The translations under genes and the position numbers were made by a program. Shown here one piece after another: positions 2,251-64,000 of a stretch of 64,000 bases of DNA; the stretch's first letter is position 1, and each line of letters begins with the position of its first letter. The DNA comes from Gammaproteobacteria bacterium (GTDB taxonomy: Bacteria > Pseudomonadota > Gammaproteobacteria > Ga0077536), in the NCBI GenBank assembly GCA_035325705.1, contig DAOKZI010000006.1, positions 21,074 to 85,073 on the forward strand, in the 5' to 3' direction. Below the pieces are notes generated by a model that searched no databases, was not told where the DNA came from, and saw only the letters and a list, made by a program, of their open reading frames with translations.

Positions 2251-3348
2251 ATGCATGCCGCGGGCTGGCGGCAAGCGGCTCGACTCGAGGCGGGCCGTGC
2301 AGCGCGCGAACGTCGCCTGTGCTGCAATCGCCGTGACGGGCTGCCTGTTAAGCTTGCGATCGTGGATCGCTTCGATCGCATCTTTCTGCTGCACAAGGCC
2401 CTGGTCCGCGCGCGCGTGCCGGTGTCCTGTTCGCAGCTCGAGGAGGCGCTCGAGTGCGCGCGGGCGACGGTGATCCGCACGATCGCCGACATGCGCGATC
2501 ACCTCGGCGCGCCGATCGTCTACGACCGCCCGCGCAACGGTTATCTCTATGCGCGGGACGAGGGCGGCGGGCGCTACGAGTTGCCGGGGCTGTGGTTCAA
2601 CGCCGAGGAGACCTTCGCACTGCTAGCCTGCCATCAACTGCTGCGCTCGCTGCAGCCGGGACTGCTGGACGGCGAAATCGATCCGCTGCGCCAGCGGCTC
2701 GAGCGCCTGCTCGCGACGCGCCAGGGCGGCAAGGGTCAGCTCGCCAGGCGCGTGCGCATCCTCGGCATGGCGCGACGCATGCCGGCGAGCGAGGTCTTCG
2801 GCCCGGTGAGCTCGGCGCTGACGCTGCGCCGGCAGCTCGCCTGCCACTACGACGGCCGCGGCCGCGGCAGTCGTACGGCGCGCACCGTATCGCCGCAGCG
2901 CCTCGTCCACTATCGTGACAACTGGTATCTGGACGCCTGGGATCACGGCGCGCAAGCGCTGCGCACCTTCGCCGTCGAGCGCCTGCGCGAGGCACGCATG
3001 CTCGCGGCGAAGGCGCACGAGGTGAGCGACGCCGCGCTCGATGCCGAGCTCGCCGGCGCTTACGGCATTTTTGCCGGCGCGCCCAGCGCCACCGCGGTGC
3101 TGCGTTTCTCGGCGCGGCGCGCGCGCTGGGTCGCAGACGAAACCTGGCACCCGGCACAGGTCGCGCGCTGGCTCGAGGATGGCCGCTACGAGCTGTCGCT
3201 GCCCTACGGCGATCCGCGCGAGCTCGTGCTGGACGTATTGCGCTTCGGGCCCGACTGTGAGGTCGTGGCGCCGCCGGATCTGCGTGCGCTGGTGCAGAAC
3301 CGCCTGCGCGAGGCGCTGTCTATCTACCAGCCCGCCGCCGGCGAATGA
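2251..3348 (+). CDS. WYL-domain transcriptional regulator (HTH plus WYL)
   Basis: ORF 2197..3348. An internal ATG at 2251 was chosen as start. The motif RLVHYRDNWYLDAWDHGAQALRTFAVERL is typical of a WYL domain. Confidence 0.75.
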   Translation: MHAAGWRQAARLEAGRAARERRLCCNRRDGLPVKLAIVDRFDRIFLLHKALVRARVPVSCSQLEEALECARATVIRTIADMRDHLGAPIVYDRPRNGYLYARDEGGGRYELPGLWFNAEETFALLACHQLLRSLQPGLLDGEIDPLRQRLERLLATRQGGKGQLARRVRILGMARRMPASEVFGPVSSALTLRRQLACHYDGRGRGSRTARTVSPQRLVHYRDNWYLDAWDHGAQALRTFAVERLREARMLAAKAHEVSDAALDAELAGAYGIFAGAPSATAVLRFSARRARWVADETWHPAQVARWLEDGRYELSLPYGDPRELVLDVLRFGPDCEVVAPPDLRALVQNRLREALSIYQPAAGE

Positions 3349-3362
3349 GTGGAGGCTTTACC

Positions 3363-3563
3363 ATGAATGCGATGAGATCCTTGGTCGCAGTACTTGCAGT
3401 CGCTCTCGTCGGATGTGCCGCGCCGCGCGGTGAGGAGGACGGCCCGGTCAGCCGCCTCGACGGCAATTACAAGGCCGGCGCACCGAACTACACGATCGAC
3501 GGCCGGCCGACGATCTGCGACACGGCGGGCTCGCCCGGACGATCGGTGACGCGCTGCTATTGA
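3363..3563 (+). CDS. small putative lipoprotein
   Basis: MNAMRSLVAVLAVALVGCAAP carries a lipobox-like LVGC. The ORF has high GC3. The gene lies just downstream of the WYL regulator. Confidence 0.4.
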   Translation: MNAMRSLVAVLAVALVGCAAPRGEEDGPVSRLDGNYKAGAPNYTIDGRPTICDTAGSPGRSVTRCY

Positions 3564-3594
3564 ATCATCGCAGCAGTCGCGACCGGGGCGGACG

Positions 3595-3990
3595 TATCTT
3601 CGTAGCCCGGAAGCAGCGCAGCGGAATCCGGGCTCGGCATATCGGCCGGCACCGACGTTCGCTGATCGATCGCCACGGCGCTCCCGGATTCCGCGCCGCT
3701 GCGCGGCGCTGCTTCCGGGCTACGAAGATTTGTGGCTTGCCGTGAAAGAGGACGCCCCGTTCTCGTAGCCCGGGTGCAGCGTAGCGGAACCCGGGGTCGG
3801 GCATGCCTGAGACGCAAAGACTTTCGGCCCTGCGCGGGATCTTCCCGAATGCATGAGAGGACGGCGGGCGCCGATCCCGGGTTACGCGCTGCGCGCTCCA
3901 CCCGGGCTACGACACCGCCGAGGCTATGTCTCTTGCATGATTGGGGGTGATGCGCGCGCCTCATCACCGTTGGGCTGACGAAGAAAGCCC
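3595..3990. repeat. REP-like palindromic element cluster (4 units as two inverted pairs) plus a TTGGGCT...AGCCCAG hairpin motif
   Basis: Units of the form GTAGCCCGG(A/G)..GCGCAGCG..ATCCGGG / ACCCGGG sit at about 3598, 3676, 3757 and 3860. The hairpin ccgttgggctgacgaagaaagcccagcg lies at about 3958-3990. Confidence 0.8.
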
Positions 3991-34461: not shown

Positions 34462-34760
34462 GGCGAGCTCGACTCTCGGGCGGGCAATTCCGCGGCCAGC
34501 ATAGTCGGGTCGATCCCGCCGAGCCTGCGCTGGGTCAAACTTTCTGCCCTGCGAACACTCCGCTTTTGAACGGCGCGAGCGCGGAAACCTCAGCGAGGAC
34601 GGCCTCCTTTCGCGCTTCACTTTCCGGAGCACCAGAGACGGCACGCGCGCTCTGCAAACACCGCAACGCGGCGCGACGCCACCCTCGTCTTCCTCGGTGT
34701 TCTCGGTGTTCTCTGTGGCAAAAACGGCGCCTCATGAGGCACCCACGGATCAGCGCCGCC

Positions 34761-45411: not shown

Positions 45412-45960
45412 CCCTCATTCCACCAAAGCGCCGCTCCCGGGTTACGCGCTGCGCGCTCCACCCGGGCTACGAAATGCCGTGCGCGCGGTTAGCTCCCGGG
45501 TTACGGAATGCCGTGCGCGCGGTTAGCTCCGGGACTACGGAATGCCGTGCGCGTGATTGGCGCTCGTAGCCCGGGTGCAGCGTAGCGGAACCCGGGATCC
45601 CTCATTCCTTCGTAGCGCCGCTCCCGGGTTACGCGCTGCGCGCTGCACCCGGGCTACGAAATGCCGTGCGCGCGGTTAGCTCCCGGGCTACGGAATGCCG
45701 TGCGCGTGATTGGCGCTCGTAGCCCGGGTGCAGCGTAGCGGAACCCGGGATCCCTCATTCCTTCGTAGCGCCGCTCCCGGGTTACGCGCTGCGCGCTGCA
45801 CCCGGGCTACGAAATGCCGTGCGCGCGGTTAGCTCCCGGGCTACGGAATGCCGTGCGCGTGATTGGCGCTCGTAGCCCGGGTGCAGCGTAGCGGAACCCG
45901 GGATCCCGCATCACACCGGAGCGCCCGATCCCGGGTTACGATCCAGCCTTCAGGCGGCAG
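45412..45960. repeat. tandem array (about 3.5 copies) of a 153 bp unit carrying two oppositely oriented REP palindromes
   Basis: The unit starting cgtagcccgggtgcagcgtagcggaacccgggatccctcattcc recurs at about 45565, 45718 and 45871. An internal submotif aatgccgtgcgcg(c/t)g(g/a)tt(a/g)gc is duplicated within each unit. Confidence 0.8.
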
Positions 45961-56312: not shown

Positions 56313-56812
56313 AGGACACGGGGAAAGACGGGATTGGCTGCGGCACAGCCCGTAGGTCGGGCTGACGAAGGAAGCCCAACGCGCACGACGTCAAATGTCT
56401 TGTAGCCCGGATGAGCGCAGCGAATCCGGGGTTCGGCGGATCATTGCGCGCAAGCGCGAGGCTTGGCGTCCGATCCCGGATTCGCTGCGCTCATCCGGGC
56501 TACGAAGATTCCGGGGCGGCCGCACGCGGAGCGGAATGTCGAACTCCTTCCAACGTGAACGGCCGTTTCGTAGCCCGGGTGGAGCGCGCAGCGCGTAACC
56601 CGGGATCGGCGCGCGTCGTCTCCCATGCATTCGAGAAGACCCGGCGCGGTGCGCGCCGGGCAGGGCCGAAAGCGCTTGCGTATCGGGCATGCCGGATCCC
56701 GGGTTCCGCTCCGCTGCACCCGGGCTACGAGAGCGGGGGGCACTTTCTTTAGCGCTGCGGAGGTTCAAACAATCCCTTTCTCCCTCCGTGTCCTCCGTGT
56801 CCTCCGTGGCTA
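56313..56812. repeat. composite intergenic mosaic: family-2 TIRs enclosing the hairpin motif and four REP units
   Basis: Left degenerate TIR gaatcccggaggacacgggg (about 56313). Hairpin cgggctgacgaaggaagcccaacg (about 56355). REP units at about 56400, 56470, 56565 and 56690. Right TIR ccctccgtgtcctccgtgtcctccgtggctagattc (about 56768-56805). Confidence 0.7.
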
Positions 56813-56826
56813 GATTCATCAGCGTC

Positions 56827-57657
56827 TCAGCGCAGCACAGAGCCCGATACCTGCGCTGCGAGGAGCAAAGGCCAGACCGTGATCCAGCCGCGCGCATGGG
56901 CGGCATCGTCGACGATGACGAGACGTGCGCCGGTCTGCGCTCGTAGCGCGGCAGAGATCTGGGCTGGCGGCACGTTGCGATCGCGGCCGCCCGCATAGTG
57001 GACTTGCGCGACTCGCGGCGGCAGCGGCGGGCGGCGCGCGGGGTCAAGCGAGGCGGTGAGCGGCGAATAGCCGTGCGCCGCGGCCCAGGCCTCGAGATCG
57101 AGATTCGCGGCCACCGTGATCACGCGATCGACGGCCTCGATGCGCTCGGCGAGGAGCATCGCGAGCACGCCGCCGCCGCTGTAGCCGACGAGCGTGTAGT
57201 GGCCGATCCGATGCGTCACGCGCAGCCGCGCCAGCGCGGCGGCGAGGCTCGCGACCACCTCCGTGCCGTAGCGGGCTTCCGTCCACAGCCGGGGCGCGCA
57301 GCCCGGCGCCTGCGCGAGACCCTCATAGCAGGGGCGGGCGAGATAGATCGAAGGCGCGGGATCGAGCGCCATCAGCTCGCGCGCGAGGCGACGGCGCGGC
57401 GTCGGATCGCCGGCCGGCAGATGGCGCGTCGCGAACGGGCGGCCATCGCCTTCGAGATAGACGTGCACGCGGTCCGCGCCGTCGAGACGGCCCTGCACGT
57501 CGATCCGGTGCATGAAGCCCGCGCCTTCGATCAGCGATCCCGGCAGGGGCGGCGGCGCGCCGGCGCAAGCGGCCAGGAACACCGGCGCGCCGAGCAGGAC
57601 GAGCAGCGCCCGCGCGCGGCGCGATGCTATGCTCGGCACGGGATCCCGGAGCAACAT
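56827..57657 (-). CDS. alpha/beta-hydrolase lipoprotein
   Basis: Lipobox LLGAPVFLAAC. GYSGGG nucleophile elbow. Confidence 0.65.
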   Translation of the reverse strand: MLLRDPVPSIASRRARALLVLLGAPVFLAACAGAPPPLPGSLIEGAGFMHRIDVQGRLDGADRVHVYLEGDGRPFATRHLPAGDPTPRRRLARELMALDPAPSIYLARPCYEGLAQAPGCAPRLWTEARYGTEVVASLAAALARLRVTHRIGHYTLVGYSGGGVLAMLLAERIEAVDRVITVAANLDLEAWAAAHGYSPLTASLDPARRPPLPPRVAQVHYAGGRDRNVPPAQISAALRAQTGARLVIVDDAAHARGWITVWPLLLAAQVSGSVLR

Positions 57658-57663
57658 TCAGGC

Positions 57664-58344
57664 ATGAAGCACCTCGCCCTGCTGCTGGTGACGCTGTGCT
57701 GCGCATGGACGCTGTCCGCGCGCGCGGCGGCGCCGGCCGCGCAGGTCGCCGAACTCGAAGGGCGTGCGATCGCGCTGGGCGCGGACGGGCATACGCGGAC
57801 GCTCGCGATTCAGGCACCGGTCTACGCCGGCGACACGGTCGCGACCCTGGGCCGCGCGCGGGCGCTGCTGCGGTTCACGGACGGCTCGAAGTACGAGCTC
57901 GGCGCGGACACGCGGCTGCGCATCGATCGCTATCGCTACGGCGGGCAGCCGGACGAGGCCGAGGCCGCGACCGAGATCGTCAAAGGCCTGTTCCGCTATG
58001 TCTCCGGCCTCATCGCGAAGCATCGGCCGCGCGCGACGCAGATCCGCACGGCGGTCGCGACGATCGGCATCCGCGGCACGCATGTGATCGGCGAAATCAC
58101 CGAGACCTCGGCGACGATCGGGCTGCTGCCGCCGGAGACGGGCGACGCACCGAGCGCGATAGAGGTATCGAACGCGCACGGCAGCGTGACGATCGACCAG
58201 CCGAACTACGTCACCGAGATCCCGGACGCGAACAGTCCGCCGTCGCCGCCGCGGCCGCGCGATCTGCGCTCGATGACGCGCCAGCTCCGTCTGGTGCAGA
58301 CCATGCGCCGCGTGATTACGCCGAGGATGCCCGCACTGCCCTGA
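57664..58344 (+). CDS. FecR-domain secreted protein
   Basis: The internal ATG at 57664 gives signal peptide MKHLALLLVTLCCAWTLSARA. The FecR-like region reads IQAPVYAGDTVATLGRARALLRFTDGSKYELGADTRLRID. Confidence 0.6.
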   Translation: MKHLALLLVTLCCAWTLSARAAAPAAQVAELEGRAIALGADGHTRTLAIQAPVYAGDTVATLGRARALLRFTDGSKYELGADTRLRIDRYRYGGQPDEAEAATEIVKGLFRYVSGLIAKHRPRATQIRTAVATIGIRGTHVIGEITETSATIGLLPPETGDAPSAIEVSNAHGSVTIDQPNYVTEIPDANSPPSPPRPRDLRSMTRQLRLVQTMRRVITPRMPALP

Positions 58345-58419
58345 GACCGCGTTTCCTCCGCCGCGCGCGGAGCGCCACGCTCCATCCGATTCAGCATTCA
58401 TCTCGAAGAGGTTTTCCGC

Positions 58420-59577
58420 ATGAAGCTCGACGGCGTCACCGTGATCGATTTGTCGATGTTCCTGCCCGGTCCCCATTTCACGCTGATGATGGCCGACCAC
58501 GGTGCGGACGTCATCCGCATCGAGCCGCCCGCCGGTGAGCCGAGCCGCGAGTACGGCCTGCGGCTCGGCGAACACAGCGTGTGGTTCCGCAACACGCATC
58601 GCGGCAAGCGCAGCCTGCGCCTGAACCTGAAGGATCCGCGCGGCAAGGCACTGCTGATGAAGCTGCTGGAGAAGGCCGACGTGCTGGTCGAAGGCTTCAG
58701 GCCCGGCGTCATGCGCCGGCTCGGGCTCGACTACGAGAGCGTGCGCGCGCACGCGCCGCAGATCGTCTACTGCTCGATCTCCGCCTTCGGCCAGACCGGT
58801 CGCTATCGCGACAAGCCCGCGCACGACATGGCGGTGCAGGCGCTCGCCGGCACGCTGGGCTTCAACCTCGGACGCGACGGCGCGCCGACCAATCCCGGCC
58901 TGCCGACCGCCGATATCACGAGCTCGATGTTCGCGCTGAGCGGTGTGTTGATGGCGCTGCTGAAGCAGCGGCAGACGGGGCAGGGAGATTTCCTCGACAT
59001 CGCGATGCACGACAGCCTGCTCGCGTGGACACCCAACTACACCGGCCCCGTGTTTGCCGAGCACCGGCCGCACGAGGTGAAGCACGAGCGCAACTGGGGC
59101 GGTGGCGCTTTCTACAATCTCTATCGCACGCGCGACGCGCAGTGGATGGTGCTCGGTGGCCTGGAGCACCACTTCTGCGCGAATTTCCTCAACAAGGCGG
59201 GGCGGCCGGATCTGATCCCGCTGTGCGAGCTGCCGCCGGGCCCGGGCCAGCAGCCGGTGAAGGACTTCCTCGCGGACTTCTTTGCGGCGCGCACGCGGGC
59301 GGAAGCGCTGGCATGGCTCGCCGACATCGACGTCTGCTATGCGCCGCTGCGCACGCTGGTCGAAGCCTATGACGATCCGCATGCGGCCGAGCGCGGCATG
59401 CTGCTGCACGACGAGCAGGGCTTGCCGCACATCGGCACCGCGATCAAGTTCACCCGCGAGCCCGCGCAGATAGGCTACGCGGTGCCGCGCCTCGGCGAGC
59501 ACTCGCGGGCGATCGCGGCGGAGCTCGGTTATGCCGACGCGGAGATCGAGGCACTGGCGCGCGACGGGGTCATCTGA
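58420..59577 (+). CDS. CoA-transferase family III (CaiB/BaiF) protein
   Basis: 385 aa (VIDLSMFLPGPHFTLMMADHGADVIRIEPP...). Confidence 0.85.
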   Translation: MKLDGVTVIDLSMFLPGPHFTLMMADHGADVIRIEPPAGEPSREYGLRLGEHSVWFRNTHRGKRSLRLNLKDPRGKALLMKLLEKADVLVEGFRPGVMRRLGLDYESVRAHAPQIVYCSISAFGQTGRYRDKPAHDMAVQALAGTLGFNLGRDGAPTNPGLPTADITSSMFALSGVLMALLKQRQTGQGDFLDIAMHDSLLAWTPNYTGPVFAEHRPHEVKHERNWGGGAFYNLYRTRDAQWMVLGGLEHHFCANFLNKAGRPDLIPLCELPPGPGQQPVKDFLADFFAARTRAEALAWLADIDVCYAPLRTLVEAYDDPHAAERGMLLHDEQGLPHIGTAIKFTREPAQIGYAVPRLGEHSRAIAAELGYADAEIEALARDGVI

Positions 59578-59739
59578 AGCCATCGCCGCGGTCGCGCGTC
59601 GGAGCCGGACGCGCACAGATCCGGCGAGCTCACGGCCGAACGCAGCGGCGCCGGCAACGCTCGGCTCCGCAGGCCCCGCCGGGCAATCTGCCCGTTGATG
59701 CCGTCGCGGCGCGCGGCTTCGGCCCGGCGGAGTAGAGTT

Positions 59740-60165
59740 CGAGCGGGGACACCCACCGAGTTCGAGAGTAGAGTTCGAGCGGGGACACCCACAGTTCGAG
59801 CGGGGGACGGGTCGAGCGGGGACACCCACAGTTCGGGGCGAGTCGAGTGGGGACACCCACCCGAGGGAGCGAGCCATTCGAGTGGGGACACCCATTTAAT
59901 CAAGCGGGAAGACCTATGGCTGTCCCGGCTCGCGGTTCGCGGACGGTGGGTGTCCCGGCCCGCGCCCCAGGTCTCGCGAACAGCGCGAACGGTGGGTGTC
60001 CCGGGCCCACGCCACGAAGCGGTGGGTGTCCCAGCTCGAGTAGCCAGCGCGACGCGGTTCGAAGCGGGTCCCGCGAACGGTGGGTGTCCCGGCCCGAAGA
60101 CAAACCTCCGGCACCACGCCCGCCGTCCCACTTGCCTAGAATCGCCCGCAGCGAGGACACCCATG
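59740..60165. repeat. convergent array of a 12-20 bp motif (core GGGGACACCCAC) upstream of the two-component system
   Basis: Direct copies (context GTTCGAGCGGGGACACCCAC) at 59745, 59781, 59818, 59849 and 59884. Inverted copies (GGTGGGTGTCCCGG) at 59945, 59991, 60021 and 60079, plus a partial copy at 59921. A degenerate direct copy gaggacacccatg lies at 60153, about 40 bp before the kinase ATG. Confidence 0.85.
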
Positions 60166-60200
60166 CTTCATGCCCGTCCGGATCCGTGCCGAGCCGCTTT

Positions 60201-61583
60201 ATGATGAGGCTGACCCACCACCTGTTGCTGCATCTCCTCGGCTGGTCGCTGGTCTGTGCGGTGATCGCGACCGCCTTCGTCGCGCAGCGCACCGAGCGCG
60301 CGCTGCGGCGCGAGGCGAGCGCGCTCGCGGACAGCGCCGTGCGCGTGCTCGACATGCAGTTGGCGCGCATCGCGCTGGGGGCCGAGCACGATGCGCAGTT
60401 CCCGGACTGGGACCTGGTCGAGGGATTGCGCGTGCCGGCGGGCGGCTGTCTCCGTCTGCTGCATGCCGGCGGCGAGGTGTGGCGCAGTCACTGTCGCGGG
60501 CTGGACCTCGCGCGCAGCGCCCCGGCGCCGGCGTGGTTCACGGCGCTGCGCGCGCGCATGCCCGGGACGATCACCGCGCTCCTGCGTCCCCTACGGTCGA
60601 CCGCGCCGGCGCCCGCGCGCATCGAGGTGACGCTGGACGCGCGCGAGCAGTCGGCGCTCGCCTGGCGCTCGCTGCGCGAGACCCTGCTGCTCGTCGCGAG
60701 CGTCGCCGCCGCGCTGGGTGCCGTCGTGCTCGTCGTCGTGGCGCGGGCGCTGCGGCCGGCACGCGCGCTGCTCGCCCGCATCGACGCGCTCGAGCGCGGC
60801 GCGCCCGCGGAGCCGCCCGGTCGCTACCGCTTCCTCGAGCTGCAACGCATCGGCGACGCGCTCGAGCGCCTCGCGAGCTCGCTCGCCGCCGCGCTGGTCC
60901 GCCAGCGCCGGCTCGCCGCCGAGCTGCTCCATGCCCAGGAGGACGAGCGCCGCCGTCTCGCCCGCGAGCTGCACGATGAATTCGCGCAGAGCCTCGCCGG
61001 CATCGCGGCGACGACGGGCGCGCTGAAGAGCGACGTCGCCGCCGGCCGCCTCCCGCCCGCCGCCGATCTCGATCGGCTCGCCGCCGCCGCCGCGGGCATG
61101 CAGCGCCAGCTCCGCGAGCTGCTCGAGCGTCTGGGGCCGGCGACGCTGGACGATCTGGGGTTGGGCCCCGCGCTCGTCTCCTTGACGAAGGAGTGGGACG
61201 CACGCTGTCGCGGCCGCCCGCGCTTCGTCTGCGACATCGACGCGACGCTGCCCGACCCGCTGCCCGCCGCCGTCGCGATCACGGCCTACCGCACGGCGCA
61301 GGAAGCGCTGACCAATGCCGCGCGTCATGCCGGGGCGGCGCGAGTCGTGCTCCGGATCGCCGCGGCGCCGCTCGGGGCCGAGCCCGGCCTCGTGCTCTGG
61401 ATCGACGACGACGGCGACACCGCGCCCGCCGCGCCGATCCTCGGACGCGGCCTCATCGGCATGCGCGAGCGCGCGCTCGCGCTGGGCGGCACGGTGAGCT
61501 GGGGCAGGCGAGCGGACGGCGGATTCCGGATCGAAGCGCGGCTGCCGCTGGGACAGACACGGGCCAGCGCAGCCTCCGTATGA
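60201..61583 (+). CDS. sensor histidine kinase (NarX/UhpB type, HisKA_3 plus HATPase)
   Basis: N-terminal TM segments. H-box ELHDEFAQSLAGI. ATP-binding region (TNAARHAGAARV...GRGLIGMRERALALGG). Confidence 0.85.
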   Translation: MMRLTHHLLLHLLGWSLVCAVIATAFVAQRTERALRREASALADSAVRVLDMQLARIALGAEHDAQFPDWDLVEGLRVPAGGCLRLLHAGGEVWRSHCRGLDLARSAPAPAWFTALRARMPGTITALLRPLRSTAPAPARIEVTLDAREQSALAWRSLRETLLLVASVAAALGAVVLVVVARALRPARALLARIDALERGAPAEPPGRYRFLELQRIGDALERLASSLAAALVRQRRLAAELLHAQEDERRRLARELHDEFAQSLAGIAATTGALKSDVAAGRLPPAADLDRLAAAAAGMQRQLRELLERLGPATLDDLGLGPALVSLTKEWDARCRGRPRFVCDIDATLPDPLPAAVAITAYRTAQEALTNAARHAGAARVVLRIAAAPLGAEPGLVLWIDDDGDTAPAAPILGRGLIGMRERALALGGTVSWGRRADGGFRIEARLPLGQTRASAASV

Positions 61584-62254
61584 ACGCCACCCGCCGCATC
61601 GTCATCGCCGACGATCACGCGATCGTCCGCGCCGGCTACTGCGCGCTGCTGTCGCGCCACCCGGGCTGCACGATCGTCGGCGAGGCCGCCGACGGCGCCG
61701 AAGCCTACCGCCTGGTCGCGAGCCTCGCGCCGGATCTGCTCGTGATCGATCTATCGATGCCGGGTCTCGGCGGCCTGGGCGCGATTCCGCGCGTGCGCCA
61801 GCGCCGGCCCGACTGCCGTGTCCTCGTACTCAGCATGCACGGCGATCCGGCCTACGTCGAACGCGCGCTGCTCGCCGGCGCGCACGGCTATGTGACCAAG
61901 AGCAGCGCGCCGGACATCCTCCTCGCCGCGGTCGATGCCGTCGCCGGCGGCGGCCGCTACTTGAGCCCGGATCTATCCTCGCGGCTCGCCTGGCAGCGCC
62001 TCGGCAGCGCCGTGCCGGGCGCCGAGGATCTGACGCCGCGGGAGTTCGAGGTCCTGCGTCTGCTCGTCGAGGCGCACACGCCTGCGGCGATCGCGCGTGC
62101 GCTCGGGATCAGCGACAAGACCGTGCTGAACATGCACTACACCATCAAGCGCAAGCTGCAGGCGCGCACCGACATCGAGCTGATGCACGCGGCGCTGCGC
62201 ATGGGTCTGATCGACGCGCCGCCCCAGTCTCCGCCGGCGCCGGCAGAGGACTGA
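61580..62254 (+). CDS. LuxR/NarL-family response regulator
   Basis: ATG overlaps the kinase stop as ATGA. The receiver domain carries a DD...D...K pattern. The C-terminal HTH reads LTPREFEVLRLLVEAHTPAAIARALGISDKTVLNMH. Confidence 0.85.
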   Translation: MNATRRIVIADDHAIVRAGYCALLSRHPGCTIVGEAADGAEAYRLVASLAPDLLVIDLSMPGLGGLGAIPRVRQRRPDCRVLVLSMHGDPAYVERALLAGAHGYVTKSSAPDILLAAVDAVAGGGRYLSPDLSSRLAWQRLGSAVPGAEDLTPREFEVLRLLVEAHTPAAIARALGISDKTVLNMHYTIKRKLQARTDIELMHAALRMGLIDAPPQSPPAPAED

Positions 62255-62349
62255 GCCGCGACGCCGGGCAGCGGTTCAGCGGGCCTGCGCATTCGCGTAT
62301 GCTGGCGCCCTTTCCGGCCCGCGTCCCCGAAAGAACCTCCGTCGAGTCC

Positions 62350-64000
62350 ATGCCGATTCTGCTGAAGTACCTGCCGCGCGAGTTCGCGGCCTTCCTCGTC
62401 GCGTGCGCCACTCGCTGGCCCTGGCTCGTGATCCTCGTAATGCTCGCGTTGACGGGCTGGGGCGTCCGCTACACCGCCGCGCACATCGGTATCGACACCG
62501 ACACGGGCGAGATGATCGATCCGAAGCTGCCGCACCGGCAGGCGAGCAGGGCGCTCGACGAGGCCTTTCCGCATCTGCCCGGGGACGTCCTCGTCTACGC
62601 ACAGGCCGCCCACGCCGGTGACGCGGAGGACGCCGCGGACGCGCTCGCCGCGGCGCTGCGCGAGCGCCCGGACATCGCGCGCGCGCTGTCGCAACCGGGA
62701 GGCGGCGAGTTCTTCGCGCGCCAGGGACTGCTCTATCTATCGGTCGACGAGCTGTGGACGCTGGACGAGAAGCTCGCCGACGCCGCGCCGCTGCTCGGCA
62801 CGCTGGCCGCGGACGCGAGCCTGCGCGGCCTGTTCGACACGCTGTCGCTAGGCCTCGACGAAGCGCAGGACGAGTCGGCGCGGGCGAACCTCGCCCGGCT
62901 CTTCGATCGCGTGTCCGCTGCGCTCGAACGGTACGCCGCCGGCGACACCACGCCGAATCACTGGCGCGAGGAGTTGTTCGACGAGAACGAGGACGGCGGC
63001 CCGGCGCGCGCCTTCGTGCTGATCGATCCCGCGCTCGCGAACACGAGCTTCCAGCCGGCGGAGCCCGCGATCGAGGCGCTGCACGGGCTGCTCGACGAGC
63101 TGCAGCGGCATCATCCGCAGGTGCAGTACCGCGTGACGGGCTCCGCGGCGATGAACGGCGAAGAGCTGGTGACGGTCGCCGAGGACGCGAGCCTGACGAC
63201 CGGGCTGTCCTTCGCCTTCGTCGCGCTGGTGCTCGTCTGGGGGCTGCGGCGCGGCGGGCTCGTGCTCGCCGTGCTGGTGACGCTCGCCTGCGGTCTGGCG
63301 CTGACCGCGGCCTTTGCCGCCGGCTTCGTCGGCAGCCTGAACCTCATCTCGGTGTGCTTCGCCGTGCTCTTCATCGGCATGGGCGTCGACTTCGGCATCC
63401 AGTTCGTGCTGCGCTACCAGGAAGAGAGTCGGCACGGCATCGCGCGCCGCGCCGCGCTGCTCGCCGCCGCGCGCGGCGTCGGCGGCGCGCTGATCCTCGC
63501 CGCCGCCGGCGCCGCGATCAGCTTCTCCGCCTTCGTGCCGACGAGCTACAAAGGTCTCGCCCAGCTCGGCATCATCTCGAGCTGCAGCATGGCGATCGCG
63601 CTGCTCGCGAATCTCACGCTGCTGCCCGCGCTGCTGGTGCTGCTGCCGGCGCCGAAGGCGAAGCCCGCGCCCGTGCGCTCGCGTGAGCCCGGCTTCGTCG
63701 CGCGCCACGCGAAAGCGATACTCGCGGTGTCCGCGCTGCTGACGATCGTGAGCCTCGCGCTGCTGCCGCGCGCGCGCTTCGATCTGAATCCGCTGAACCT
63801 GAAGGATCCGCGCAGCCCGGCGGTGCGCGCGTTCAAGGATCTGGCGAGTACGCCGGGTGCCTCGCCGTACACCATCGATCTGCTCGCGCCGACGCTCGCC
63901 GCGGCCGACGCGCTCGCGGCGCGCATCGGGGCCCTGCCCGAAGTCGATGAAGCCCTCACGCTCTCGAGCTACGTCGCGGCCGATCAGGAAGAGAAGCTCG
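62350..64000 (+). CDS. MMPL/RND-superfamily transporter (HpnN-like); the 3' end lies beyond the window
   Basis: ATG at 62350 (MPILLKYLPREFAAFLVACATRWPWLVILVMLALTGWG). A large periplasmic loop is followed by the TM cluster (LNLISVCFAVLFIGMGVDFGIQF). No plus-strand ORF is listed in this frame through to the window end, consistent with an open frame. Confidence 0.7.
   Translation, partial: MPILLKYLPREFAAFLVACATRWPWLVILVMLALTGWGVRYTAAHIGIDTDTGEMIDPKLPHRQASRALDEAFPHLPGDVLVYAQAAHAGDAEDAADALAAALRERPDIARALSQPGGGEFFARQGLLYLSVDELWTLDEKLADAAPLLGTLAADASLRGLFDTLSLGLDEAQDESARANLARLFDRVSAALERYAAGDTTPNHWREELFDENEDGGPARAFVLIDPALANTSFQPAEPAIEALHGLLDELQRHHPQVQYRVTGSAAMNGEELVTVAEDASLTTGLSFAFVALVLVWGLRRGGLVLAVLVTLACGLALTAAFAAGFVGSLNLISVCFAVLFIGMGVDFGIQFVLRYQEESRHGIARRAALLAAARGVGGALILAAAGAAISFSAFVPTSYKGLAQLGIISSCSMAIALLANLTLLPALLVLLPAPKAKPAPVRSREPGFVARHAKAILAVSALLTIVSLALLPRARFDLNPLNLKDPRSPAVRAFKDLASTPGASPYTIDLLAPTLAAADALAARIGALPEVDEALTLSSYVAADQEEKL

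Follow-up and report, generated by a model that had tools for sequence, protein, structure and literature searches.

The array of short repeats in front of the sensor kinase gene is probably an orphan, gene-less cluster in which the motif repeated at the ends of TnpA_Y1 subclass 2.3 elements forms two arms, a reading to which we assign a probability of roughly 0.7. The enzyme of these elements is of the IS200/RAYT-related HUH single-tyrosine type, ∼320 amino acids in length, and autonomous copies carry 1 to ∼10 cores of the form (R)GACACCCA(C) upstream of the gene and the inverted motif downstream (→→→ gene ←←←). In the window, by which we mean the whole 64-kb stretch of DNA that was analyzed, the two arms abut with no gene between them, and the array would stand to its parent element much as a REPIN or a MITE does.

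The array is located between two co-oriented genes, that of a family III CoA-transferase upstream (58420..59577, + strand; CoA_transf_3, PF02515, 1.9e-96) and that of a HisKA_3 sensor kinase downstream (60201-61583, + strand). The kinase gene is followed by that of a LuxR-type regulator (Response_reg+GerE, 61580-62254, + strand) and then by an MMPL transporter gene; the transferase, kinase, and regulator genes lie outside the element. The intergenic tract spans 623 bp (59578-60200), rather than the ∼430 bp of the original prediction, and the array proper occupies ∼370 bp of it (59730..60098, a region without a strand of its own) as five ‘+’ units followed by five ‘−’ units in a gene-less, ‘TIRtron-like’ arrangement. 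The gene callers used for public assemblies place a spurious 211-residue open reading frame across the array. When up to one mismatch is allowed, GGGACACCCA is matched 13 times in the 64-kb window against 1.88 matches expected, a count reached by 0 of 100 shuffles, and 11 of the 13 matches fall within 59746-60163. Nine of the cores in the array are exact, five on the + strand and four on the − strand, and two further copies are degenerate (59746-60164); the rest of the 64-kb window contains no exact core. The predicted minimum of ten copies is thereby reached, and the predicted 12-bp core has to be shortened to the 10–11 nt that are exact in all copies of the window.

The two arms are internally regular. 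Exact ‘+’ matches of GGGACACCCA start at 59746, 59782, 59819, 59850, and 59885, at intervals of 36, 37, 31, and 35, and share the sequence (T)TCGAG(C/T)G immediately 5′ of the core, in agreement with the 5′ extension and the 31–37 bp intervals that had been described for the direct copies. The first four cores read GGGACACCCAC (59746..59756, 59782..59792, 59819..59829, and 59850..59860, all on the + strand), the first of them within a unit composed of AGTTCGAGCG and the core. The fifth and innermost reads GGGACACCCAT (59885..59895, + strand) and forms an inverted pair, across a 20-nt spacer, with the innermost unit of the other arm. That unit is degenerate (59916..59926, − strand; ATGGCTGTCCC when read on the + strand) and matches GGGACACCCA with one mismatch from 59917. 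Exact ‘−’ matches start at 59947, 59993, 60023, and 60081; the corresponding cores, all on the − strand, are at 59946..59956 (GTGGGTGTCCC on the + strand), 59992..60002, 60022..60032, and, outermost, 60080..60090, and the spacings in this arm are 30, 46, 30, and 58. Units of this ‘−’ arm have the sequence CGGTGGGTGTCCC(G/A)GC, and the form earlier given for the inverted copies, GGTGGGTGTCCCGGCCCG, is exact in two of the four and departs from the sequence of the other two. Complementarity between the arms amounts to 83–95%. A solitary degenerate ‘+’ copy, AGGACACCCAT (60154..60164, + strand; one mismatch to GGGACACCCA, starting at 60154), is situated 38 nt before the ATG of the kinase gene at 60201. 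The dense, head-to-head array of the original prediction, with five direct and four to five inverted copies (four exact and one degenerate) and one more degenerate copy ∼40 bp ahead of the kinase, is thus confirmed.

The spacers between the units hold partial repeats rather than unique sequence, and comparison of the repeat family within the array also identifies a truncated unit, AGTTCGAGCGGGGGACGGG, that lacks a full core (59793..59811, + strand). These features bear on the possibility that the array is a replication or partition site, made up of iterons or forming a parC-like centromere, or else a CRISPR-like array. The parC site of plasmid R1 consists of two blocks of five repeats, which the window array superficially resembles. 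The locus, however, is a syntenic part of a chromosome without rep, par, or cas genes nearby, the spacing is irregular, and the two blocks face in opposite orientations. Such an identity is exceedingly improbable; the iteron or partition site that had been entertained is abandoned, and the earlier dismissal of CRISPR, given the variable spacing, the flip in orientation, and the partial repeats in the spacers, was correct. DnaA boxes were likewise considered as the identity of the cores and were rejected. A megablast search of 57000-63000 against plasmids returned only a chance-level match of 128 nt in Cupriavidus.

The same sequence is present in three other public assemblies. Comparison of the 626-nt intergenic region with that of one of the three, a near-identical strain (L004), reveals a single SNP (625/626 identical) and one extra 32-bp unit in L004, which is inserted between units 3 and 4, directly 3′ of the unit 3 core; single units are thus gained or lost at the level of strains. 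Orthologs of the kinase place the source organism among uncultured gammaproteobacteria. Orthologous kinase loci at greater distance differ far more. L123, in which the kinase is 83% identical, contains three ‘+’ and two ‘−’ copies ∼100 nt apart that are mostly mismatched, and L126 (78% identical) contains 11 copies, all of them ‘+’ and embedded in different flanks (CCGATCG-core-CG). In L129, where the kinase is 60% identical and the upstream neighbor is a different one, the intergenic region has no copy of the motif. Copy number, spacing, and orientation are not conserved among these loci, and what can be aligned with copies in L123 are, on the side of the window, the outermost copies together with the promoter-proximal one. 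The core of ‘+’ unit 1 (59746..59756) aligns with the first copy of L123 and with copy 7 of L126; the outermost ‘−’ core and the adjoining flank ...CCCGGCCCGAAGACA can be aligned with the final ‘−’ copy in L123; and the position of the copy at 60154 is conserved, as AGGGCACCCGT in L123 and as an exact GGGACACCCAC in L126. Alignable outer copies combined with differing interiors indicate that the insertion is old, that the interior was rebuilt independently, and that the cores are decaying in one of the lineages. In two lineages, decay has also reached the promoter-proximal copy.

The location of the array suggested a tempting function, and the original prediction had raised the idea of an operator field or cooperative binding platform for the downstream regulator. 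In such a field, the cores would be cooperative sites for the NarL/LuxR-type regulator, or for another local one, acting on the kinase-regulator-MMPL operon. The kinase operon is indeed preceded by the motif in the window and at the orthologous loci L123 and L126, and the copy ∼40 nt before the start codon holds its position. Retention ahead of the same operon in three lineages, the sole argument for a local role, could reflect a local function under selection, although common descent explains this persistence equally well. The geometry speaks against an operator, as the orthologous loci differ completely (5+5, 3+2, and 11 all ‘+’), the promoter-proximal copy decays in two lineages, and L129 has no motif. 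Sites for NarL-type regulators are 7-2-7 heptamer pairs, and the array has spacings of 30–58 nt without helical phasing.

The distribution of the motif in other genomes weighs still further on this question. A scan for GGGACACCCAC-N15-45-GGGACACCCAC across 185,579 species genomes yielded at least 118 loci, as compared with a chance expectation that we estimate at ∼2 for uniform composition and at no more than ∼17 if all genomes had 65% GC. The matches listed include Pseudomonadales, Pseudohongiella, Lysobacterales (among them the cultured Tahibacter), Aeromonas, Chromatiales, and Myxococcota, together with Acidobacteriota (the cultured Acanthopleuribacter pedis and Sulfidibacter corallicola), Phycisphaerae, Binatia, and others, mostly with 3–25 copies per locus. 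A few of the matches listed (L096, L047, and L115) consist of simple tandem repeats without any variation and possibly have nothing to do with the family. Viral contigs contributed only three weak loci, and we therefore see no link to phages. A phmmer search with the kinase and the regulator of the window among 1473 open reading frames within 1.5 kb of the arrays at the 118 loci listed found, leaving aside the locus under study, one weak match to a regulator and no HisKA_3 kinase. The original prediction had itself named recurrence at many unrelated loci with no link to regulators as the argument against an operator, and such recurrence is what the scan found. The array most likely does not serve as an operator for the kinase and regulator, and an operator field of any kind is very improbable at this locus.

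Across this taxonomic range, conservation is limited to a core of 8–11 nt. In an alignment of 616 motif copies among the matches listed, no position outside the 11-nt core is conserved, with a C following the 10-mer in 86% of the copies and with flanks at background. The flanks are alike within one array or arm and unlike between arrays, even in the same genome, and the window array behaves likewise, with similar flanks within each arm. Spacings between copies of the same orientation are broad among the loci listed (15–60 nt, a range that includes the window values), and neither these loci nor the window display helical phasing or any periodicity in the spacing of the units. A hairpin test around the core in 902 distinct units detected perfect 5-bp stems in at most 2.5% of units at any register. 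Full-text literature searches with the motif string recovered unrelated primer sequences only, and in the library searched no paper contains both the motif and the term ‘tyrosine transposase’ or links the two.

In order to find proteins associated with the motif, all open reading frames of at least 100 residues within 1.5 kb of any copy at the loci listed were clustered. A single recurrent family emerged, present at 23 loci among the matches listed, the next-largest real family being present at four. Its members are 300–390 residues long, give weak and consistent matches to Pfam Y1_Tnp and to the NCBIfam entry ‘REP-associated tyrosine transposase’, and have homologs that carry the JGI label ‘REP element-mobilizing transposase RayT’ and occur as several diverged copies per genome. 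All 20 of the complete array-linked reading frames among the matches listed contain the motifs NH[YVLFH]H and Y[VDNQI][DEA]LNP, separated by 105–113 residues. Judged by sequence, these proteins of ∼320 residues carry the signature of TnpA_Y1 subclass 2.3, for which NHYH / WE / YVDLNP motifs and a median length of 325 residues have been reported, along with a core interrupted by two insertions, a long tail in two parts, an average of 3.9 copies in each genome, and frequent presence in marine Gammaproteobacteria (Quentin 2018, PMC6006769). In that study, automatic and manual searches found no REP-like sequences for subclasses 2.1 and 2.3 (PMC6006769). A sequence search of the PDB with the Y1 profile gave no meaningful match. 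An AlphaFold2 model of a subclass 2.3 protein was of low confidence (pLDDT 61.7), with a C-terminal domain that could not be interpreted, and 25 of the 26 best-ranked Foldseek hits were to IS200, IS608, ISDra2, or TnpA_REP structures, all of them weak (E 0.05–0.3).

The layout of the 23 transposase loci among the matches listed is always →→ gene ←←, with ‘+’ copies to the left and ‘−’ copies to the right of the gene, whichever strand the gene occupies; examples from these motif-selected loci are L055 (four copies, gene, three copies), L051 (three, gene, three), and L080 (seven, gene, three). Because this sample had been chosen through the motif, 80 metagenome loci were fetched by protein similarity alone (alignment A1) and searched with the relaxed core GACA[CG][CA]CA. 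One or more upstream copies are present in 52 of the 80 loci, even though many flanks in this sample are truncated. The 500 nt upstream of the gene hold 97 ‘+’ and 2 ‘−’ copies, the downstream flanks hold 63 ‘−’ and 6 ‘+’ copies, and within the gene the two orientations are equal (3/3). The innermost upstream copy in the protein-fetched loci is nearly fixed at −76 to −110 from the gene start and is often followed within 12–20 nt by a TTGACA box, and outside it are further copies with element-specific flanks. The arrangement recurs on a plasmid of the cultured Pseudoalteromonas sp. CuT4-3, in which the gene has no annotation beyond ‘transposase’ and an IS30 has inserted ahead of the copy at the right end. 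The counts show that subclass 2.3 genes are flanked by the motif as a conserved element, inverted between the two sides and often present in several copies. A variant core, GACACACA, is found at five loci, four of which are neighbors in the protein tree, a clustering that hints at co-evolution of enzyme and motif.

An association of this type could also arise if the arrays were targets and not ends, that is, pre-existing host repeats preferred by Y1 elements, with the window array as an unoccupied target. Such a preference is known from some IS elements, which insert into REPs, and it would accommodate both the excess of gene-less arrays over those with a gene and the specificity of the flanks to each array. 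In the protein-fetched loci, the near-constant distance of the innermost copy from the gene start, the TTGACA box that often follows this copy, and the strict symmetry of orientation on both sides of the gene fit the ends of an element and not random insertion into an array, and we know of no host factor that conserves a core of 8–11 nt across phyla. We regard the target reading as quite improbable and retain the identification of the motif with the ends of subclass 2.3 elements.

Arrays without a gene are a regular part of this family. Among the matches listed, gene-less arrays are more numerous than those with a gene, and 160 clusters of at least two copies comprise 137 with one orientation, 20 convergent, none divergent, and 3 mixed; the ratio of 20:0 between convergent and divergent clusters has a probability of ∼1e-6 under random switches of orientation. 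Convergent arrays with 17–100 nt between the arms include, among the matches listed, L020, L009 (5+2), and L120 (4+2). The first of these, from the cultured Acanthopleuribacter pedis, consists of 7+7 copies with no gene and spacings of 29–37. At least 11 genomes harbor both transposase-linked and orphan arrays. Gene-less convergent arrays like that of the window are a normal, widespread form of the array family.

A model for the origin of the window array can be proposed from these observations. The Y1 enzyme would be supplied in trans from elsewhere in the genome, would recognize the short linear, non-hairpin core by means of its subclass-specific extra domains, and would cleave and rejoin DNA at or near the core. 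The arms would grow and shrink by single units, either through insertion beside an existing copy or through slippage or recombination between units, and growth and loss of this kind would explain why the flanks are specific to an arm and the core is exact. The site upstream of the kinase operon would be an old insertion, made in the ancestor of this gammaproteobacterial lineage, with no regulatory partnership, and changes in the expression of the kinase operon, if there are any, would be incidental. We infer binding and cleavage of the core by the Y1 protein, for this array as for every member of the family. Hairpins are the usual substrate of HUH enzymes, and the array units have none. By analogy with what has been proposed for RAYTs and REPINs and for TIRYTs and TIR repeats (PMC3733652), the Y1 enzyme may both create and maintain the orphan arrays in trans.

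A subclass 2.3 gene in the source genome is putative, the region covered being the 64-kb window and 8 kb to its right. A tblastn search with six array-linked Y1 proteins found nothing better than E = 0.07 in the 64-kb window, and Y1_Tnp matched no called gene in the 8 kb beyond its right end. This region of ∼72 kb is also free of a second array, and the family is therefore sparse in this region, unlike the abundant GTAG REPs of the window. The latter are a canonical REP family of the window's own, and the array units differ from it.

The capacity of the tract to fold, which the original prediction had pointed out, is confirmed for both nucleic acids: the array region folds as single-stranded DNA with −130.9 kcal/mol (z = −5.06), and the array as RNA with −213.8 kcal/mol (369 nt). 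Such strong foldback potential, the placement between co-oriented genes, and the persistence of the locus in three lineages would suit an element that, whatever its origin, has been exapted by the host, whether as a foldback that terminates or stabilizes the CoA-transferase transcript, as an insulator, or as a platform for nucleoid-associated proteins, as has been proposed for REP/BIME. Scans for sigma-70 promoters and intrinsic terminators in 59400-60400 found nothing, an Rfam scan of 59000-61000 (E ≤ 1) gave no match, the cores are decaying in L123, and the copies in L126 all have one orientation, so that a foldback is not conserved. Exaptation is in our judgment unlikely, and an orphan cluster of subclass 2.3 terminal repeats is the reading that we carry forward.

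These results remove a tempting but wrong regulatory annotation, since the supposed ‘operator field’ is better read as mobile-element debris. The suggestion of a ‘previously undescribed repeat element’ came close, with the amendment that the repeats form a family tied to a subclass of Y1/HUH transposases. The interest of the finding is moderate and lies chiefly in the provision of a candidate DNA substrate for subclass 2.3, which was thought to be without one and has thousands of members annotated only as ‘transposase’ or ‘RayT’. It is possible, if somewhat doubtful, that GACACCCA arrays are the unrecognized cognate DNA of the subclass, which would then constitute a linear-motif HUH system with tandem multi-copy ends and gene-less convergent arrays, the latter persisting and exchanging single units as REPIN-like replicators served in trans, with a recognition logic that differs from that of REPINs. 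Recognition would in that case presumably proceed through the subclass-specific insertions and the C-terminal tail, and the window array would be an example of these replicators that became fixed ahead of a two-component operon long enough ago for three lineages to have it in common. The question is thus raised of how an HUH enzyme works without hairpin recognition, and, since the core is short and forms no hairpin, binding and cleavage can be assayed directly on 11-mer oligonucleotides. On the practical side, such arrays trap gene callers, and because units are gained or lost between near-identical strains, they may serve as strain-level markers.

Among known systems, IS200/IS605 elements and the PATEs derived from them have subterminal hairpins on one strand and no inverted repeats, whereas the arrays present an inverted linear motif without hairpins. 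Membership in these groups is ruled out by the inverted ends of the protein-fetched loci and by the absence of hairpins in the 902 units. The ends of Tn7 and Mu consist of several transposase-binding repeats that share one orientation within each end and are inverted between ends, an architecture shared by the arrays. Tn7 and Mu employ DDE transposases that act on double-stranded DNA at sites of defined number and spacing, whereas the arrays are linked to an HUH single-tyrosine nuclease and vary widely in copy number and spacing. Ends of the Tn7/Mu DDE type were rejected for the window, in which there are no such genes nearby and no TGT/ACA termini.

Similarity to REPs, BIMEs, and REPINs is closer. 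In each case short intergenic repeats are inverted around a single-tyrosine HUH gene and are found as orphans, in inverted doublets or clusters, as well; inverted flanking of a class 2 TnpA_Y1 gene, the trait of REPtrons, is found for the array family and not at the window locus. The reverse complement of the core begins with GTGG (GTGGGTGTCCC), as would suit the GT[AG]G tag, which in REPs sits 5′ at the foot of a hairpin that the array units lack. The array-linked enzyme has the class 2 Y---NP motif. The array units are not palindromic hairpins (5-bp stems in ≤2.5% of 902 units) and fall outside the definition of a REP, an imperfect palindrome of 20–40 nt; their orientation is uniform within an arm, whereas it alternates in BIMEs; and they have a core in common across phyla, in contrast to the lineage-specific REPs. 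With about twice the length of a RAYT, the array-linked enzyme contains two insertions, ends in a long C-terminal tail, and occurs in multiple copies. The earlier description of the array as not REP-like is accordingly right with respect to hairpins and to the GTAG REPs of the window, and goes too far in that both belong to the same broad class of Y1-associated repeats.

TIRtrons are Y1 (RAYT-like) genes flanked by terminal inverted repeats that are not REPs; many of these TIRs share the sequence GGGGWSAS, and copies away from the gene occur as singles, dimers, and groups (Di Nocera, De Gregorio & Rocco 2013, PMC3733652). The array family likewise places non-hairpin inverted repeats around a Y1 gene and includes orphan grouped copies, and all five ‘+’ units of the window read GGGGACAC, which matches GGGGWSAS. 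The units of the ‘−’ arm read CGGGACAC or TGGGACAC and do not fit GGGG; with these units and with the pan-family core (R)GACACCCA, the match to GGGGWSAS is therefore partial outside GC-rich lineages. TIRtrons differ further in having one long TIR per side, as against tandem cores of 8–11 nt with variable spacers, and the array core is conserved across phyla. Moreover, the described TIRYTs belong to subclasses 2.1, 2.2, and 2.5 and not to 2.3 (Quentin 2018, PMC6006769), whereas the array-linked enzyme is of subclass 2.3 (20 of 20 Y1 reading frames among the matches listed). With subclass 2.3 as originally defined, the array-linked proteins agree in signature, in length, and in the presence of multiple diverged copies (PMC6006769); the present analysis differs from that account in finding a conserved inverted flanking motif for most members and a wider taxonomic range.

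All three orthologous kinase loci share a short conserved block, made up of CCGGGCAATCTGCC and then CTGCGGCCCCGCCCC...TAAACTT, that immediately precedes the first copy of the motif in the GGGACACCCAC array. In the window it comprises GGGCAATCTGCC (59681-59692) and the GC-rich block that follows; in L123, the ortholog with 83% identity, it spans 3164-3212; and in L126, the ortholog with 78% identity, it is present twice (3668-3712 and 3925-3950). The CCGGGCAATCTGCC/CTGCGGCCCCGCCCC block may mark the edge of the old insertion or the point where a transcript ends. Within the array of L123, additional strongly degenerate motif copies (GGACGTCCATC, GATGGATGTCCTCGG; at 3263-3275, 3375-3390, and 3470-3485) are situated between the recognizable ones, which suggests that the array in this lineage is decaying rather than being maintained.

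Public assemblies annotate as a gene a 211-aa open reading frame (59529-60164, minus strand) that traverses the entire array in the window and overlaps the CoA-transferase gene at its 3′ end. This reading frame has no Pfam match, and it is not conserved at the orthologous loci: a DUF2490 gene occupies that place in L123, and in L126 no gene is annotated at this position. Additionally, the 32-bp indel in the near-identical strain (L004) shifts its frame. The 211-aa ORF is almost certainly spurious.

Among the 80 metagenome loci fetched by protein similarity alone (L130-L209), many subclass 2.3 Y1 transposase genes carry a TTGACA box, resembling a −35 element, on the gene side of the nearest upstream motif copy and 12-20 nt from it (for example, L159, L164, L165, L172, L188, L193, L194, L196, and L200). 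Judged from this placement, the motif could also act as a site for autoregulation of the transposase promoter. On the Pseudoalteromonas sp. CuT4-3 plasmid (NZ_CP142031.1; locus L213), an IS30-family element inserted at 2684-3682 separates the Y1 gene from the right-end motif copy at 3742, and this cultured strain thus offers a natural case of a disrupted Y1 element.

A few of the at least 118 matches of the two-core motif scan are probably not true family members, because three of them are perfect simple tandem repeats that contain the 11-mer, with periods of 56 nt (L096, 24-300), 30 nt (L047, 2206-2320), and 15 nt (L115, 361-480). The first of these in particular, from a Bacteroidales MAG of 31% GC, may have no connection with the Y1 family.

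Two further repeat families are found in the window. One, unrelated to the GGGACACCCAC array, has a ∼30-nt unit, GGCCACAGAGAACACCGAGAACAC(A/C)GAGGAA, composed of tandem 9-bp sub-units. It occurs both as MITE-like inverted pairs with ∼110 and ∼400 nt between copies (24832-24862/24972-25000 and 38006-38037/38428-38461) and as solo copies; other members are located at 34688-34720 and, as the variant CTCCGTGTC, at 56783-56810. The other comprises canonical GTAG-tagged REP-like palindromes, GTAGCCCGGGTG...CCCGGGCTAC, which form inverted doublets with 80-150 nt between copies at about eight intergenic sites (3765/3901, 5713/5831, 10961/11103, 23316/23436, 33835/33918, 38207/38357, and 56570/56719) and a tandem array at 45461-45940 (2.9 copies of 153 bp, 95% identity). 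This REPIN-like GTAG family is abundant in the window, at roughly one per 8 kb, whereas the GGGACACCCAC array is present only once.
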